A stretch of 64,000 nt of DNA from the NCBI RefSeq assembly GCF_055900595.2, contig NZ_CM148325.1; one strand, given 5' to 3'. Of this stretch, positions 5,717 to 49,835 are shown piece by piece. Below the pieces are notes generated by a model. The model saw only the letters and a list, made by a program, of their open reading frames with translations. It did no database searches and was not told the origin of the DNA. The position numbers were made by a program, and so were the translations under genes. Position 1 is the stretch's first letter. Every line of letters starts with the position of its first letter.

Positions 5717-7686
5717 CACAACTCGCCATTGGCAAACCCGCACCCCTCGGCGCGCATTACGACGGTCAGGGCGTCAACTTCACACTTTTCTCCGCTCATG
5801 CCGAGCGGGTAGAACTGTGTATCTTTGACGCCAATGGCCAGGAACATCGCTATGACTTGCCAGGGCACAGTGGCGACATTTGGCACGGTTATCTGCCGGA
5901 TGCGCGCCCGGGTTTGCGTTATGGTTATCGCGTTCATGGCCCCTGGCGACCCGCCGAGGGACATCGCTTTAACCCAGCGAAGTTGTTGATTGATCCTTGC
6001 GCGCGGCAAATTGACGGGGAGTTTAAAGATAACCCGCTGCTGCACGCAGGTCATAATGAACCTGACTATCGCGACAACGCCGCCATTGCGCCGAAATGTG
6101 TAGTGGTGGTTGATCACTATGACTGGGAGGATGATGCCCCGCCGCGCACGCCGTGGGGCAGCACTATCATTTATGAAGCCCATGTCAAAGGATTAACGTA
6201 TCTGCACCCGGAGATCCCCGTCGATATCCGCGGCACTTATAAAGCCCTGGGGCATCCGGTGATGATCAACTATTTGAAACAGTTGGGCATTACTGCGCTG
6301 GAGTTGCTGCCGGTGGCACAATTTGCCAGCGAACCACGCCTGCAACGTATGGGGTTAAGTAACTACTGGGGCTATAACCCGGTAGCGATGTTTGCGCTGC
6401 ATCCGGCGTATGCCTGCTCGCCAGAAACGGCGCTGAATGAGTTTCGCGATGCAATCAAAGCACTGCATAAAGCGGGTATCGAAGTCATTCTTGATATCGT
6501 GCTTAACCATAGTGCGGAACTGGACCTCGACGGTCCGTTATTCTCTCTGCGTGGGATCGACAACCGTAGCTATTATTGGATAAGAGAAGACGGTGATTAT
6601 CACAATTGGACAGGCTGTGGCAACACGCTCAATTTGAGTCATCCGGCGGTGGTGGATTATGCCAGCGCCTGCCTGCGTTATTGGGTAGAAACCTGCCACG
6701 TCGATGGTTTCCGTTTTGATCTGGCGGCAGTCATGGGCCGTACGCCTGAGTTCCGTCAGGATGCGCCGTTGTTTACCGCAATTCAGAACTGCCCGGTGCT
6801 CTCGCAGGTGAAGTTAATTGCCGAACCGTGGGATATTGCGCCTGGTGGTTATCAGGTGGGAAATTTCCCGCCATTGTTTGCTGAGTGGAACGATCATTTC
6901 CGTGATGCTGCCCGTCGTTTCTGGCTGCATTATGATTTGCCTCTGGGGGCGTTTGCCGGGCGTTTTGCTGCCTCCAGCGATGTTTTTAAACGTAATGGTC
7001 GTCTGCCGAGTGCCGCGATTAATCTCGTCACCGCGCATGACGGTTTTACGCTTCGCGACTGCGTTTGCTTCAACCATAAACACAATGAAGCAAACGGAGA
7101 AGAAAATCGCGACGGGACCAACAACAATCACAGTAACAATCATGGTAAAGAAGGATTAGGCGGTACTCTTGACCTGGTTGAACGGCGGCGCGACAGCATT
7201 CACGCCCTGTTAACAACGTTGTTGCTCTCCCAGGGTACGCCGATGTTACTGGCCGGTGACGAACATGGTCATAGCCAGCATGGCAATAACAATGCCTACT
7301 GTCAGGATAATCAATTAACCTGGTTGGACTGGTCGCAGGCAAGCAGTGGTTTAACCGCATTTACCGCCGCGTTAATCCATCTGCGCAAGCGCATTCCCGC
7401 TTTGGTGGAGAATCGCTGGTGGGAAGAAGGCGACGGCAATGTCCGTTGGCTAAATCGATATGCTCAACCTTTAAGCACGGATGAGTGGCAAAACGGGCCG
7501 AAACAGCTGCAAATTCTGCTCTCGGATCGCTTTTTGATCGCAATTAACGCCACGCTTGAGGTAACAGAGATTGTTTTACCTGCTGGGGAGTGGCACGCCA
7601 TTCCCCCATTCGCTGGAGAGGATAACCCAGTGATTACGGCTGTCTGGCAGGGACCTGCACACGGATTGTGTGTGTTCCAGAGATGA
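5713..7686 (+). CDS. glgX: Glycogen debranching enzyme
   Basis: 657-aa ORF recognised as GlgX; its start overlaps the glgB stop in an ATGA (5713-5716). Confidence 0.97.
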
Positions 7687-43453: not shown

Positions 43454-45522
<2,069 letters not shown>

Positions 45523-45530
45523 ATAAAACA

Positions 45531-45559
45531 GGAGGCGAAGGTGCCTCCCGTTTTATTTT
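45531..45559 (+). terminator. Rho-independent terminator of ompR-envZ (GGAGGC-gaaggt-GCCTCC + TTTTATTTT)
   Basis: Perfect 6-bp stem with T-rich tail 9 nt after the envZ stop. Confidence 0.75.
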
Positions 45560-45685
45560 GTGCACTCAGTATCTACTGAATGAATACGGTTTCAGACATC
45601 GGCACCATACGAAGTAAAGTGTACTGTAAGCTGATTGCAGGCTAGCGTATCCTGATTAGTAAAAGCACACTAAAGGAATAGCTTG

Positions 45686-46969
45686 ATGCAACTTACCAAC
45701 GAAGAACAAGTACAGATTGCTCGTATAAAAGAAAAAATCCCACGCATTGCCGCACTGGATCCTGAATGTAAGTTATTCGGTTCTGAAGGTTGGAAATATC
45801 AATGGCCGAAGCCTGCCAGCGAGGCGGAAATAGCTTCCTGGGAGAAAAAACATAGCGTCACTTTGCCACGGGAATATCGAATTTTTCTTCGCTATATCGC
45901 TAATGGCGGTCCGGCACATGCCTACGGTCTTGAATCTTTAGGCGGTACAGATATTTATGGCGATATAACAAAAGAAAGCCCTGTACCGCTTTATATGACG
46001 CAGCAGGATGTTGATGTGTTGAATGCTGGCCGTACAGAAGATGATGAAGAATATAGTTTTTTTGACGGCGCATTGACCATTCTCACCCTGGGATGTACTT
46101 ATGATATTTGCCTGGTGGTGACGGGGCAGTATCGCGGAAGGTTAATGCTGACTGATGGTGATGAAGATTATCCGTTTGATTTTATATATGATAAAAATTT
46201 CCTCAACTGGTATGAACGCTGGCTGGACGATTTTATTGCTGGCATGAGTATGAAGGGTTTCGATAGAAGTTTGCCAGGAACGCAAATTCAACTGCGTGAG
46301 TGGTTTTTAACTGAGAAAATCCCGGATTTACGTAGATCCATTTTATTCTCGCTATGCCGTTTTCCACAGATAGAACCCGAAACATTTGCCCTTTGGGAAC
46401 ATGTTTGCCACACAGAGAATGATAAAGAATTGTGTGAAGAGGCATTCATAAGATTACGCCAAAAAAAAGTTTCTTGTGCTGCAGATATTTTTCGACTCTA
46501 TTTTACAATGCCAGATGAATTACGTGATATTGCTATTAAAGATCTCCGTTTTGCCTGTAGAGATAGTGTGGTGAATATTGAGGATTATATTCATTCACTG
46601 TTAATAATAATGCCTGAACTTGACGATGACACTCTATCCTCAGCTGTCTTTGCTATACGAGAAACAGAGTATAATAAATATGATACTTTTCTGCCGCTTC
46701 TCGAACGTATCACTGATGACCGTCAGCAAACATTATTGTGGGCGATGAGTAAGGCGCCTGATTTCAATGAAAGCCGAGGATTCATTGAGTTGGTATTACC
46801 GCTTTTTGCATCATCAAAGATGGAGAATGTAAGGAAGGCTATTTTGTTGCTCATTGAAGTTAAAGATAATCGTATTCCACCATTGGTTGATGAAGCTGCA
46901 ACTCGTTTCCCTGAACTGACCATTTTACGAGAAAACTACTATCTCAGGACGTGGGGACATAAGCCATAA
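45686..46969 (+). CDS. SMI1/KNR4 (SUKH-1)-like domain protein with C-terminal helical-repeat region; accessory gene
   Basis: 427-aa ORF (ATG 45686 with AGGAA 8 nt upstream); motif WEKKHSVTLPREYRIFLRYIANGG and downstream FFDGALTILTLG...GRLMLTDGDEDYPF match the SMI1/KNR4 signature as I recall it; GC content visibly lower than the flanking genes. Confidence 0.7.
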   Translation: MQLTNEEQVQIARIKEKIPRIAALDPECKLFGSEGWKYQWPKPASEAEIASWEKKHSVTLPREYRIFLRYIANGGPAHAYGLESLGGTDIYGDITKESPVPLYMTQQDVDVLNAGRTEDDEEYSFFDGALTILTLGCTYDICLVVTGQYRGRLMLTDGDEDYPFDFIYDKNFLNWYERWLDDFIAGMSMKGFDRSLPGTQIQLREWFLTEKIPDLRRSILFSLCRFPQIEPETFALWEHVCHTENDKELCEEAFIRLRQKKVSCAADIFRLYFTMPDELRDIAIKDLRFACRDSVVNIEDYIHSLLIIMPELDDDTLSSAVFAIRETEYNKYDTFLPLLERITDDRQQTLLWAMSKAPDFNESRGFIELVLPLFASSKMENVRKAILLLIEVKDNRIPPLVDEAATRFPELTILRENYYLRTWGHKP

Positions 46970-47006
46970 ATTAATGGTTCAGAAATGATCTAACGCGGAG
47001 AAAAAT

Positions 47007-47537
47007 ATGATCAGGGAACATATTCAGCAAGCGATAAATAATAGGTTAGCCTTTGATGGCCCATTCAATGTTGTTCCTGAACCTGCAAGCACTGCGTTTG
47101 ATAGCCGGATCCCGACATTGAAAAACGGTGTCTGGCAGAAGGCCAGCCCTATGTTGCAGGCGCGTTTTGCACATTGTGGACGTTGGTTAAGCGCTACACA
47201 TGGAAGCTGGCTAAGTATAAGTGACATGGAAACGCTTTGGCAGGAACACATAGAAGATACGTTTCTTGATGAAATCAAAATGAATGCTGTAGCTTCAAGT
47301 GATAATTGGGATAACCATGCCTTGGGACTATTTCGTTCTCATCGCCTGTCACTTTTTGCCGGTAGTGATTACAGTTATGAAATGGTTTTTCTCCTTTGGC
47401 TAGATAGTACCGTTGAGCCAGAGGTCTGGGTTTATGACTGCAATGGGGAATCACGTTATAAAGATCTTAATGATTACCTGAATGCATATATTAATGATGA
47501 CGTAAGCGCCTGTGAGTGCTCCTGGCGAGTAGAATGA
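47007..47537 (+). CDS. Small hypothetical protein, possibly SUKH-superfamily-like; accessory gene
   Basis: 176-aa ORF with GCGGAG ribosome-binding site; C-terminal segment LFAGSDYSYEMVFLLWLDSTVEPEVWVYDCNGESRYKDLNDYLNAYI resembles the C-terminal half of SUKH-type immunity domains (weak, by eye). Confidence 0.6.
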   Translation: MIREHIQQAINNRLAFDGPFNVVPEPASTAFDSRIPTLKNGVWQKASPMLQARFAHCGRWLSATHGSWLSISDMETLWQEHIEDTFLDEIKMNAVASSDNWDNHALGLFRSHRLSLFAGSDYSYEMVFLLWLDSTVEPEVWVYDCNGESRYKDLNDYLNAYINDDVSACECSWRVE

Positions 47538-48160
47538 ATAGCCCCCCTTGCCCCTTTGATCCACAAACCGCACATTACCTCGGCACAGTGCAAATCCACT
47601 ACACCCAAACCGCCTTCAACGCTGCCGTTAAGCATTATACCTGTTACATTAAAAAGCGTTTTAAAGGGTTTAAATGGGGAATCCGAACCGCTGGCTTATT
47701 GGCTATACTGCCCATGATCCCACAATGGTTGAAACCTTCTCATGACTTTAAACTCAACGCAATCAGTACGTTAATTCTTCTATTAATGTTGCCACTCCTC
47801 TTATCAATGTTCCTGTTAATCAGCAGAAGAATTAACGATTTTAAGTCAAAAACAAAGCAAGTTACTTTTACGAAACCCGTGCGTTATGCGTTTTATTTCG
47901 AGGGGATTGTTTTTTATGAATCTCATCAGCAGGGCATACTTCGCTGGGAAGATTTTTATAGCATTGAGTATGAAGAAGATTATTTGTGGCTTTTTCTGCA
48001 TTTACCGAAGAGTTGTCCCAGAGAAGCGACGAAAGCGTTTTGCGATATTTTCATTCCCACCAGTGCGATAAAAGCGCAGCCTGAACTGGATACGTTTTTT
48101 CGTGAAACACGCCACTCGCTGGATTATCTGTTTGTCCCGTTTAATTCTGACAGAAAATAA
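47534..48160 (+). CDS. Two-helix membrane protein with a C-terminal domain resembling YcxB-like / bacterial PH-like domains; accessory gene
   Basis: ORF 47516..48160; the probable ATG 47534 overlaps the upstream stop in an ATGA (translational coupling); two hydrophobic helices (LLAILPMIPQWL, ISTLILLLMLPLLLSMFLLI) are followed by a soluble ~100-aa domain. Confidence 0.55.
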   Translation: MNSPPCPFDPQTAHYLGTVQIHYTQTAFNAAVKHYTCYIKKRFKGFKWGIRTAGLLAILPMIPQWLKPSHDFKLNAISTLILLLMLPLLLSMFLLISRRINDFKSKTKQVTFTKPVRYAFYFEGIVFYESHQQGILRWEDFYSIEYEEDYLWLFLHLPKSCPREATKAFCDIFIPTSAIKAQPELDTFFRETRHSLDYLFVPFNSDRK

Positions 48161-48163
48161 CAT

Positions 48164-48192
48164 ATCCCCCGTATCTGGTGAAACGGGGGATT
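48164..48192 (-). terminator. Hairpin (tcccccgt-N-acggggga) downstream of pck, probable pck terminator
   Basis: 8-bp inverted repeat 20 nt past the pck stop with T-rich sequence 3' on the minus strand. Confidence 0.5.
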
Positions 48193-48212
48193 TCGTCGCT
48201 TAACTTATCGGA

Positions 48213-49835
48213 TTACAGTTTTGGACCAGCCGCTACCAGCGCGGCACCCGCAGGGGTGTCGGTGTATTTATCGAAGTTGTCGATAAACAGTTTCGCCAGC
48301 GTTTCAGCTTTTTCCTGCCACTGTTCCGGAGAAGCGTAGGTGTTACGCGGATCGAGGATCTTAGTGTCTACGCCCGGCAGTTCAGTCGGGATCGCTAAAT
48401 TAAACATCGGCAGAGTGAAGGTTTCTGCGTTATCCAGCGAACCGTTGAGGATAGCGTCGATAATGGCGCGGGTATCTTTAATGGAGATACGTTTGCCAGT
48501 ACCGTTCCAGCCAGTGTTAACCAGATATGCCTGCGCACCCGCCGCTTGCATACGTTTCACCAGCACTTCTGCGTACTGAGTTGGGTGCAGCGACAGGAAC
48601 GCCGCGCCGAAGCAAGCGGAGAAGGTTGGCGTCGGTTCGGTGATGCCACGTTCAGTACCGGCCAGTTTGGCGGTGAAGCCAGAGAGGAAGTGGTACTGAG
48701 TTTGATCGGCAGTCAGGCGAGAAACCGGCGGCAGCACACCAAAGGCGTCTGCGGTCAGGAAGATAACTTTAGTTGCGTGGCCCGCTTTGGAAACCGGTTT
48801 AACGATGTTATCGATGTGATAGATCGGATAAGAAACGCGGGTGTTCTCGGTTTTTGAACCATCGTCAAAATCGATAGTGCCATCTTCACGTACGGTGACG
48901 TTTTCCAGCAGCGCATCGCGACGGATAGCGTTGTAGATTTCAGGTTCCGCTTCTTTCGACAGCTTGATGGTTTTCGCGTAGCAGCCGCCTTCGAAGTTAA
49001 ACACGCCGTCGTCATCCCAGCCGTGCTCGTCATCGCCAATCAGGCGACGTTTCGGGTCGGTGGAAAGGGTGGTTTTACCGGTGCCGGAAAGGCCAAAGAA
49101 CACCGCAACATCGCCTTTCTCGCCAACGTTGGCGGAGCAGTGCATGGAGGCGATACCTTTCAGCGGCAGCAGGTAGTTCATCATTGAGAACATCCCTTTC
49201 TTCATTTCGCCGCCGTACCAGGTGCCGCCAATCAACTGCATACGTTCAGTTAAGTTAAACGCCACGAAGTTTTCAGAGTTCAGCCCCTGCTCTTTCCACT
49301 GGGGGTTAGTGCATTTTGCGCCGTTCATAACGATAAAGTCAGGTTTAAAACCAGCCAGCTCTTCATCGCTCGGGCGAATAAACATGTTTTTGACAAAATG
49401 CGCCTGCCAGGCCACTTCGGTAATGAAACGTACGGAAAGACGCGTGTCTGGGTTCGCACCACAGAAAGCGTCGACAACGAACAGACGTTTGCCGGAAAGC
49501 TGTTTGGTCACCAGGCTCTTCAGATGCTGCCAGGTTTCCGGAGAGAGAGGTTTGTTGTCGTTCTTACCTTTGCCTTTATCAGCCCACCAGAAGGTATCGC
49601 GAGTGGTATCGTCACGGACGATATACTTATCTTTTGGTGAGCGACCGGTGAATATACCGGTATCGACGGCAACGGCACCCAGATTAGTTAACACCCCGCG
49701 CTCATAACCTGTCAGGCTCGGATCGAGCTCTTCCTGATACAGCAGGTCGTAGCTTGGGTTGTAAACGATATCATGTACGTCACTGATACCATAAGCCTCG
49801 AGTTCTTGCGGGGTCAAACCATTGTTAACGCGCAT
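48213..49835 (-). CDS. pck: Phosphoenolpyruvate carboxykinase (ATP)
   Basis: ORF 48213..49904; recognised N-terminus [17 protein letters not shown] at the internal ATG (540 aa). Confidence 0.96.

Follow-up and report, generated by a model that had tools for sequence, protein, structure and literature searches.

A predicted YcxB-family membrane protein is the constant gene of a polymorphic islet between envZ and pckA in Escherichia coli

The window analyzed here is a stretch of 64,000 nucleotides (nt) from a genome of Escherichia coli (NCBI RefSeq assembly GCF_055900595.2, contig NZ_CM148325.1), in which three plus-strand genes are inserted between the convergent genes envZ (44170-45522, plus strand) and pckA (also pck; 48213-49835, minus strand). 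The subject is the last of the three, referred to as gene 3. The most probable reading, to which we assign a probability of about 0.7, is that gene 3 is genuine, has its start at ATG 47534, and encodes an inner-membrane protein of the YcxB family (Pfam PF14317); that it is the last cistron of an acquired three-gene operon and the constant gene of a small chromosomal islet; that it is not a dedicated partner of gene 2; and that its role is, at a guess, protective. The features of gene 3 and of its junction with gene 2 are the following.

47534..48160, plus strand: gene 3, 208 amino acids (aa), putative YcxB-family inner-membrane protein, stop codon TAA 48158-48160 (AlphaFold2 model, Foldseek, Prokaryotic Genome Annotation Pipeline (PGAP), ratio of nonsynonymous to synonymous substitution rates (dN/dS))
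47524-47529 and 47534-47537, plus strand: gene 2/gene 3 junction, a weak Shine-Dalgarno-like GGCGAG and then ATGA (sequence, duplex energy)
47534..47677, plus strand: residues 1-48, a variable tail of 7-14 residues, conserved strand 15-21, helix 25-42, and an end rich in lysine and arginine (six K/R), predicted to be cytoplasmic (alignment, AlphaFold2, charge count, dN/dS 0.14)
47678..47731, plus strand: first predicted transmembrane helix (TM1), residues 49-66, marginally hydrophobic in the window allele (hydropathy, AlphaFold2)
47762..47824, plus strand: second predicted transmembrane helix (TM2), residues 77-97, strongly hydrophobic, followed by RR..K.K.K (hydropathy, AlphaFold2)
47867..48106, plus strand: predicted beta-rich domain of YcxB type at the C-terminus, residues 112-191, with six strands capped by a helix (AlphaFold2, invariant columns, Pfam YcxB match at residues 123-156, dN/dS 0.23)

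The open reading frame (ORF) list opens the frame of gene 3 at GTG 47516, inside gene 2, which is the first start codon of the open frame; initiation there would give a 214-aa product without termination-reinitiation coupling. However, this GTG is not conserved, its position being TCG in E. albertii, and Enterobacteriaceae bacterium G50 carries an in-frame TAA two codons 5' of the gene-3 ATG. Pairing with the anti-Shine-Dalgarno sequence is practically nil at GTG 47516 (-0.6 kcal/mol), compared with -3.0 kcal/mol at ATG 47534, -5.6 for gene 1, and -6.6 for gene 2. The PGAP start in RefSeq is the same ATG (WP_032303923.1, a "hypothetical protein" of 208 aa from an identical E. coli genome), and in an alignment of relatives, the conservation of the protein starts only at residue 8 of the ATG product, with the residues N-terminal to it varying in sequence and length across lineages. 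Translation from GTG 47516 is thus highly improbable, and the preference for ATG 47534 expressed in an earlier note on this DNA is borne out. The start does not lie far downstream either: the use of the next in-frame start codon, GTG 47588, would delete the invariant YLGTVQ strand.

As the earlier note also described, the ATG (47534-47536) overlaps the gene-2 stop codon TGA (47535-47537) as ATGA. The 4-nt ATGA overlap is the commonest overlap of neighboring genes in bacterial operons; it is real here but statistically not remarkable, because such overlaps are so common. Termination-reinitiation coupling is classically associated with such an ATGA overlap together with a weak ribosome-binding site. 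The weak Shine-Dalgarno sequence of gene 3 and its start within the gene-2 stop thus suggest that it would be translated mainly by ribosomes that terminate on gene 2 and then reinitiate, and translational coupling of gene 3 to gene 2 is most likely in the window lineage. The junction is kept in E. albertii, and in every arrangement that contains gene 2, it amounts to 3 nt or less (either the ATGA overlap or a stop codon, 3 nt, and an ATG), persisting where the pair has diverged to 66% (gene 2) and 59-64% (gene 3) identity.

Two membrane helices are predicted for the product, in agreement with the earlier note. Hydropathy shows a strong TM2, with a Kyte-Doolittle 19-residue peak of 2.6 and a crude summed free energy of -2.8, and a weaker TM1, which reaches about 1.0 and contains R51, P60, P63, and Q64 in the window allele. 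A hydrophobic segment is present at both helix positions in 19/19 family members, and the Kyte-Doolittle threshold is passed at both in 17/19. Six K/R residues precede TM1 and five follow TM2, with a 10-residue loop between the helices; given these flanks and the positive-inside rule, both termini are expected to be cytoplasmic. The AlphaFold2 model, built on a 19-sequence alignment, has a mean predicted local distance difference test score (pLDDT) of 79 and a predicted template-modeling score of 0.72. Its elements are, in order, strand 15-21, helix 25-42, helices 44-66 and 72-107, six strands over residues 116-175, and the capping helix 176-191, with the N-terminal strand and helix modeled at a pLDDT of 88-95 over residues 11-40. 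The C-terminal beta-rich domain comprises roughly 95 aa and bears the family motif Y..FY..G......Q.G...W.DF..I ... IIP. The model suggests that the N-terminal strand packs on the C-terminal sheet, which would make a single cytoplasmic domain split by the hairpin.

The predicted fold identifies gene 3 as a divergent member of the YcxB family. The Foldseek search against AFDB50 gave 1406 matches with E ≤1e-3; the annotation YcxB or YcxB-like is carried by 49 of the top 50 matches (probability 1.00), and the best match, an E. coli protein of 96% identity, already bears the name "YcxB family protein". These family matches are predicted structures, not solved ones. At the sequence level, the weak Pfam match of gene 3 covers the C-terminal segment expected for the family, residues 123-156, and among 19 relatives, PF14317 scores E 6.2e-4 in one and ≤0.1 in six; YcxB is the sole Pfam family that recurs among the relatives outside the hydrophobic hairpin. 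Gene 3 is filed under YcxB because the fold search is clear despite the weak Pfam score. Of the YcxB-type or bacterial pleckstrin homology (bPH)-like domain that the earlier note had proposed, the YcxB part is supported by Foldseek, whereas its support from Pfam is weak.

The subfamily to which gene 3 belongs is tiny, with 15 of 1.84 billion representatives at E ≤1e-3, and a genome scan with the close alignment located it in three of 100,044 species representatives, all of them Escherichia. A profile search with the broad alignment in a set of 5.8 billion proteins gave no further members and none with a precomputed YcxB domain. Comparison of gene 3 with Pfam, NCBIfam, and PADLOC revealed no recognized immunity family (Imm*, CdiI*, or SUKH). 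A PADLOC match to PycTM (E 0.0097) was rejected as an artefact of transmembrane composition, as 0/10 relatives reproduce it; matches to Pfam MASE8 (E 0.03), NCBIfam MdoH (E 0.15), and scattered transmembrane families were likewise rejected, since they cover only the hydrophobic hairpin and vary among relatives. The searchable literature on PF14317, on bPH domains and immunity, and on the envZ/pckA hotspot yielded nothing relevant.

The envZ-pckA site is polymorphic. In most E. coli genomes it is empty, with a spacer of 76 nt, in some it holds a RelE/ParE and NadS toxin-antitoxin pair, and at least six other arrangements exist besides; the site is illustrated by the window (45523-48212) and by the loci L025, L026, L002, L005, L007, L008, L016, L022, and L024. 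Gene 3 is present in every version found that is neither empty nor of the toxin-antitoxin type, and adjoins pck in all of these except arrangement (e) below. It is the constant element of the islet, while the soluble genes are variable. The gene-3 islet was seen across Escherichia, Salmonella, and one other Enterobacteriaceae genome, in the following arrangements.

(a) envZ / gene 1 / gene 2 / gene 3 / pck: the window and E. albertii
(b) envZ / 142-aa helical protein / gene 2' / gene 3' / pck: Escherichia sp. MOD1-EC7003 and an E. coli/Shigella contig; relative to the window genes, identity is 66% for gene 2' and 59-64% for gene 3', and a 3-nt spacer separates the two
(c) envZ / 346-aa in-frame fusion, helical protein before gene 3 / pck: E. 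coli A30, Escherichia sp. E4742, and E. whittamii
(d) helical protein with the first 12 gene-3 codons, two tandem units of a toxin-tail fragment and CdiI_5, and gene 3: Salmonella
(e) envZ / 365-aa fusion of reverse order, gene 3'' before the helical protein / pck: contig L008; the gene-3 part is 43% identical to the window gene 3
(f) envZ / internally deleted remnant of gene 2 / intact gene 3 / pck: Enterobacteriaceae G50

The helical-YcxB fusion of 346 aa (L002 2585-3625; L022 4566-5606) occurs in three Escherichia species, and the YcxB-helical fusion of 365 aa (L008 6001-7098) on eight contigs; an internal ATG is kept at the junction of helical protein and gene 3. The 142-aa helical protein has a weak HEAT_2 match (E 0.13), so that the label "HEAT" is itself weak. 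At the Salmonella enterica locus L005 (4348-6618), two orphan modules, each of a toxin C-terminal fragment and CdiI_5, lie within the 5' end of gene 3. One side of the insertion retains a stub consisting of the helical protein and MSISKFDPQTAH; the other carries a chimeric gene 3 (6001-6618), the first 11 residues of which, MPFGLKPVMTQ, are from CdiI_5. The derivation of this N-terminus from CdiI_5 indicates that a cassette was inserted into the 5' end of gene 3.

In two E. albertii loci (L004 6698-7066 and L023 5647-6013), gene 3 is directly followed by 3' fragments of pck (residues 321-352 and 518-540) and a 3' fragment of envZ (371-450), then by a helix-turn-helix/RelE toxin-antitoxin pair, and then by intact pck. 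Two alternative "alleles" of the islet seem to be joined in tandem here, presumably via recombination through the flanking genes.

Pairwise comparison of six orthologues gives a dN/dS of 0.24-0.50 for gene 3. The regional values are 0.14 (residues 15-48), 0.38 (transmembrane hairpin), 0.23 (C-terminal domain), and 0.43 (tail); the lower values in the soluble parts than in the hairpin mark the soluble parts as the constrained ones. Between the window and E. coli A30, dS of gene 3 is 0.21 versus 0.19-0.22 for the flanks, and dN is 0.087 versus 0.001-0.002 (about 40-90x). An alignment of 13 relatives retains 70 invariant columns, and the ORF is intact in 19/19 E. coli carriers and four other taxa, across a dS of about 1. 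Distant relatives (17-25% identity) are stand-alone genes at unrelated sites. Some E. albertii copies of gene 3 (P0016) are frameshifted after EGIVF. The relatively high dN/dS, frameshifted and truncated variants (P0016 and P0012), and the great rarity of gene 3 would suit a decaying remnant without present function. However, the intact ORF in all E. coli carriers and the other taxa over that divergence, the uneven regional constraint that is strongest in the soluble domain, and the invariant columns make such a remnant very improbable. A deposited protein (P0017) joins the gene-3 N-terminus to a HATPase_c fragment; P0016, P0017, and P0012 are probably pseudogenes or assembly artefacts.

Gene 3 is intact and under purifying selection without gene 2 in E. 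coli A30, E. whittamii, and two Salmonella arrangements, and is intact beside a mere remnant of gene 2 in Enterobacteriaceae G50. As it survives where gene 2 is lost or decayed, it is not that gene's obligate partner. The earlier note had described a membrane partner coupled to a SUKH-like protein: the tight juxtaposition is found in all arrangements that contain gene 2, but dedicated partnership does not stand, as gene 3 is kept without gene 2 and the relatives of gene 2 occur without a YcxB gene. The persistence of the tight junction over a dS >1 and the helical fusions in both orders keep a looser functional link alive. Gene 3 might accordingly be pictured as a membrane tether or cofactor for a soluble immunity-type protein (gene 2 or the 142-aa helical protein) in a two-part module that would keep the soluble protein at the inner face of the membrane. 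Genes 2 and 3 are juxtaposed, by overlap or 3-nt spacer, in three of three gene-2-containing arrangement types, including the co-diverged pair of arrangement (b), and the helical protein is fused in frame to gene 3 in the three genomes of arrangement (c) and in the opposite order to the relative in arrangement (e); either order of fusion fits an all-cytoplasmic soluble part. We nevertheless consider such a tether unlikely. Gene 3 remains intact where gene 2 is missing and, in the window, where the helical protein is missing; gene 2 decays in Enterobacteriaceae G50 next to an intact gene 3; the distant relatives of gene 3 stand alone; and members of the gene-2 family adjoin an Rhs toxin gene or belong to immunity arrays, without a YcxB gene in the vicinity. 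The fusions are explicable by simple deletions, and their junction retains an internal ATG.

Within the reading that we prefer, of a YcxB-family protein that is constant in the islet and not dedicated to gene 2, the following mechanism is proposed. Gene 3 would come last in a horizontally acquired operon, after gene 1 (SUKH-1) and gene 2 (SUKH), and be translated mainly by the reinitiation described above. Its two-helix hairpin would anchor one cytoplasmic domain, PH-like and rich in beta-strands, to which the N-terminal part contributes a strand and a helix and the C-terminal part six strands and the capping helix, and both termini would be cytoplasmic. The upstream cargo of the islet varies among SUKH proteins, the 142-aa helical protein, and CdiI_5 orphan modules, and gene 3 would be a putative membrane-anchored binding module at the inner membrane face, with the soluble domain rather than the anchor as its putative functional surface. 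Our best guess is that its role is protective and immunity-like, as for its neighbors. Gene 3 could also, although this is unlikely, be an orphan immunity protein in its own right, directed against a membrane-acting toxin, and thus one more cassette of the array. It always stands among immunity-type genes (SUKH and CdiI_5) in an acquired islet of low GC content; its protein evolves fast, as seen in the excess of dN over the flanks at equal dS in the comparison with A30; and many immunity proteins against pore-forming toxins are, as is generally known, small inner-membrane proteins. Yet no toxin gene adjoins any family member examined or lies directly 5' of gene 3 in the contexts read, for which few genomes were sampled; gene 3 matches no Imm or CdiI family; conservation is strongest in the cytoplasmic soluble domain and not in the membrane helices; and the wider YcxB family is very large, the relatives examined not being toxin-linked. 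The earlier note regarded the coupled membrane partner as unusual for a plain array of orphan immunity genes. The locus does resemble a small array of this kind, in which the end nearest pck is occupied by a constant gene for a membrane protein. More speculatively, and with distinctly low expectation, the YcxB-type protein could be the fixed part of a modular protection locus that recruits interchangeable soluble immunity-type proteins (SUKH or HEAT-like helical) to the inner membrane face, which would explain the fusions in both orders, the deep coupling to gene 2, and the swapping of the soluble partners only.

Several observations weigh against the preferred reading. The match of PF14317 to gene 3 (E 0.57) is not significant, and no relative of gene 3 has a solved structure. 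The searchable literature holds no experiment on, and no function for, any YcxB protein. TM1 is marginal in the window allele. The constraint on gene 3 is loose, as evident from dN/dS values of up to 0.5 and the frameshifted P0016. Additionally, a promoter scan found no promoter-like site 5' of gene 1.

Alignment with the empty site L026 delimits an insert of ~2.66 kb in the window, roughly 45556-48212, that carries the three plus-strand genes and has a GC content of 0.37-0.45 compared with 0.53-0.60 in the flanks. The complete insert is found in 18 of 5426 complete E. coli genomes, at an identity of ≥98.9%, and an intact copy of gene 3 in 19 of the 5426. The remaining features of the site are as follows.

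45531..45548, plus strand: envZ terminator hairpin (terminator scan)
~45555: left edge of the insert, the end of the sequence common with the empty site L026 (alignment)
45686..46969, plus strand: gene 1, 427 aa, SUKH-1 N-terminus and a helical C-terminal domain of ~230 aa (Pfam, PGAP start)
47007..47537, plus strand: gene 2, 176 aa, soluble protein of predicted SUKH fold, immunity-type family (AlphaFold2, Foldseek, homolog context)
48166..48189, no strand assigned: GC-rich hairpin, CCCCCGT-10 nt-ACGGGGG, located where gene 3 and pckA converge (read from the sequence)
~48212: right edge of the insert, with the pckA stop at 48213

The hairpin at 48166..48189 was identified by reading the sequence and was not called by the terminator scan; it belongs to the insert, as the spacer of the empty site differs, and would be an insert-borne element. 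Rfam gave zero matches within 45400-48300, and the ORF list contains no toxin gene inside the window. Between E. coli and Salmonella, dS of gene 3 is 0.16, whereas it is 0.83 for the flanking envZ and 0.54 for pck, a difference that points to recent horizontal exchange between the genera. The dN of gene 3 exceeds that of the flanks by several-fold to tens-fold. The low GC content of the insert and this low inter-genus dS indicate that it is horizontally acquired DNA. Zero relatives of gene 3 were detected in PHROGs, phage genomes, and plasmids, and a phage or plasmid origin is thus without evidence.

RefSeq names gene 1 an "SMI1/KNR4 family protein" and genes 2 and 3 "hypothetical protein". 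Gene 1 matches the Pfam families SMI1_KNR4 (E 2.7e-6) and SUKH_6 (E 3.4e-5). The ORF list starts it at TTG 45683 and RefSeq/PGAP at the adjacent ATG 45686, with an AAGGA ribosome-binding site common to both. Its helical C-terminal domain of ~230 aa (residues ~200-427; 46280-46966) has no match in Pfam, NCBIfam, PADLOC, or PHROGs. A relationship of this domain to the 142-aa helical protein was considered and rejected at a profile-profile probability of 0.5%.

Gene 2 has zero Pfam matches. Its AlphaFold2 model has a pLDDT of 88, and the Foldseek matches are nearly all SMI1/KNR4; on this predicted fold, gene 2 is a SUKH protein, as the SUKH-like description in the earlier note had anticipated. 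In Pectobacterium parmentieri, a 56% identical homolog of gene 2 lies 20 nt 3' of the gene for a 1423-aa PAAR-Rhs protein (L014 2710-6981), itself located after Hcp and VgrG genes. On metagenomic contigs (L019 2266-12522), a 57% identical homolog belongs to a long same-strand array with Imm19, SMI1_KNR4, Imm21, and Imm32, headed by a tyrosine integrase and resembling the recombinase-associated immunity arrays described in Bacteroidales. None of the arrays with gene-2 homologs that were examined holds a relative of gene 3. Judged from these gene neighborhoods, the gene-2 family behaves as an immunity family.

Through the analysis, a RefSeq "hypothetical protein" present in 19 of the 5426 complete E. 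coli genomes gains a start codon, a predicted topology, and a family, and the envZ-pck junction emerges as the site of a small polymorphic islet in which immunity-type genes accumulate. Gene 3 is an ordinary member of the widespread YcxB family in a mildly interesting setting. Should a YcxB protein prove to work with or as an immunity factor, the finding would gain weight, PF14317 being very large, and if the protein were indeed the fixed recruiter of soluble immunity-type proteins, this would be the first function for the large YcxB family. The envZ-pck locus is compact and genetically tractable, as naturally occurring variants have or lack each partner or carry them as fusions.

Comparison with known systems places gene 3 closest to the YcxB family, which is named after YcxB of Bacillus subtilis. 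Family members are similar to gene 3 in length (about 170-220 aa) and share the same order of elements: an N-terminal strand and helix, two membrane helices, and a C-terminal beta-rich domain. Gene 3 differs in that its subfamily is tiny, divergent, and below Pfam significance by sequence alone, that it is bound to one chromosomal site beside immunity-type genes, and that it is sometimes fused to a 142-aa helical domain. Membrane-anchored bPH proteins, such as B. subtilis YdbS/YdbT, offer a possible analogy, in which a transmembrane hairpin is followed by a small, helix-capped cytoplasmic beta-sandwich. The order of secondary structure in the gene-3 model would agree with theirs; however, neither gene 3 nor its relatives match the bPH families of Pfam by sequence, and the first strand of the domain in gene 3 would precede the hairpin, giving a split arrangement.

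The islet as a whole can be compared with SUKH (SMI1/KNR4) immunity and orphan arrays, such as orphan cdiA-CT/cdiI modules and recombinase-associated arrays. Both gene 1 and gene 2 encode SUKH proteins, the latter by predicted fold; relatives of gene 2 follow an Rhs toxin gene or stand in an array with Imm19, Imm21, and Imm32; the Salmonella version carries CdiI_5 orphan modules; and the window is without a toxin gene, as expected for orphan immunity genes. In contrast to such arrays, no integrase, Rhs, or CdiA gene flanks the islet, and gene 3 is, by prediction, membrane-embedded and matches no known immunity family, remaining constant while the recognized immunity genes around it vary.

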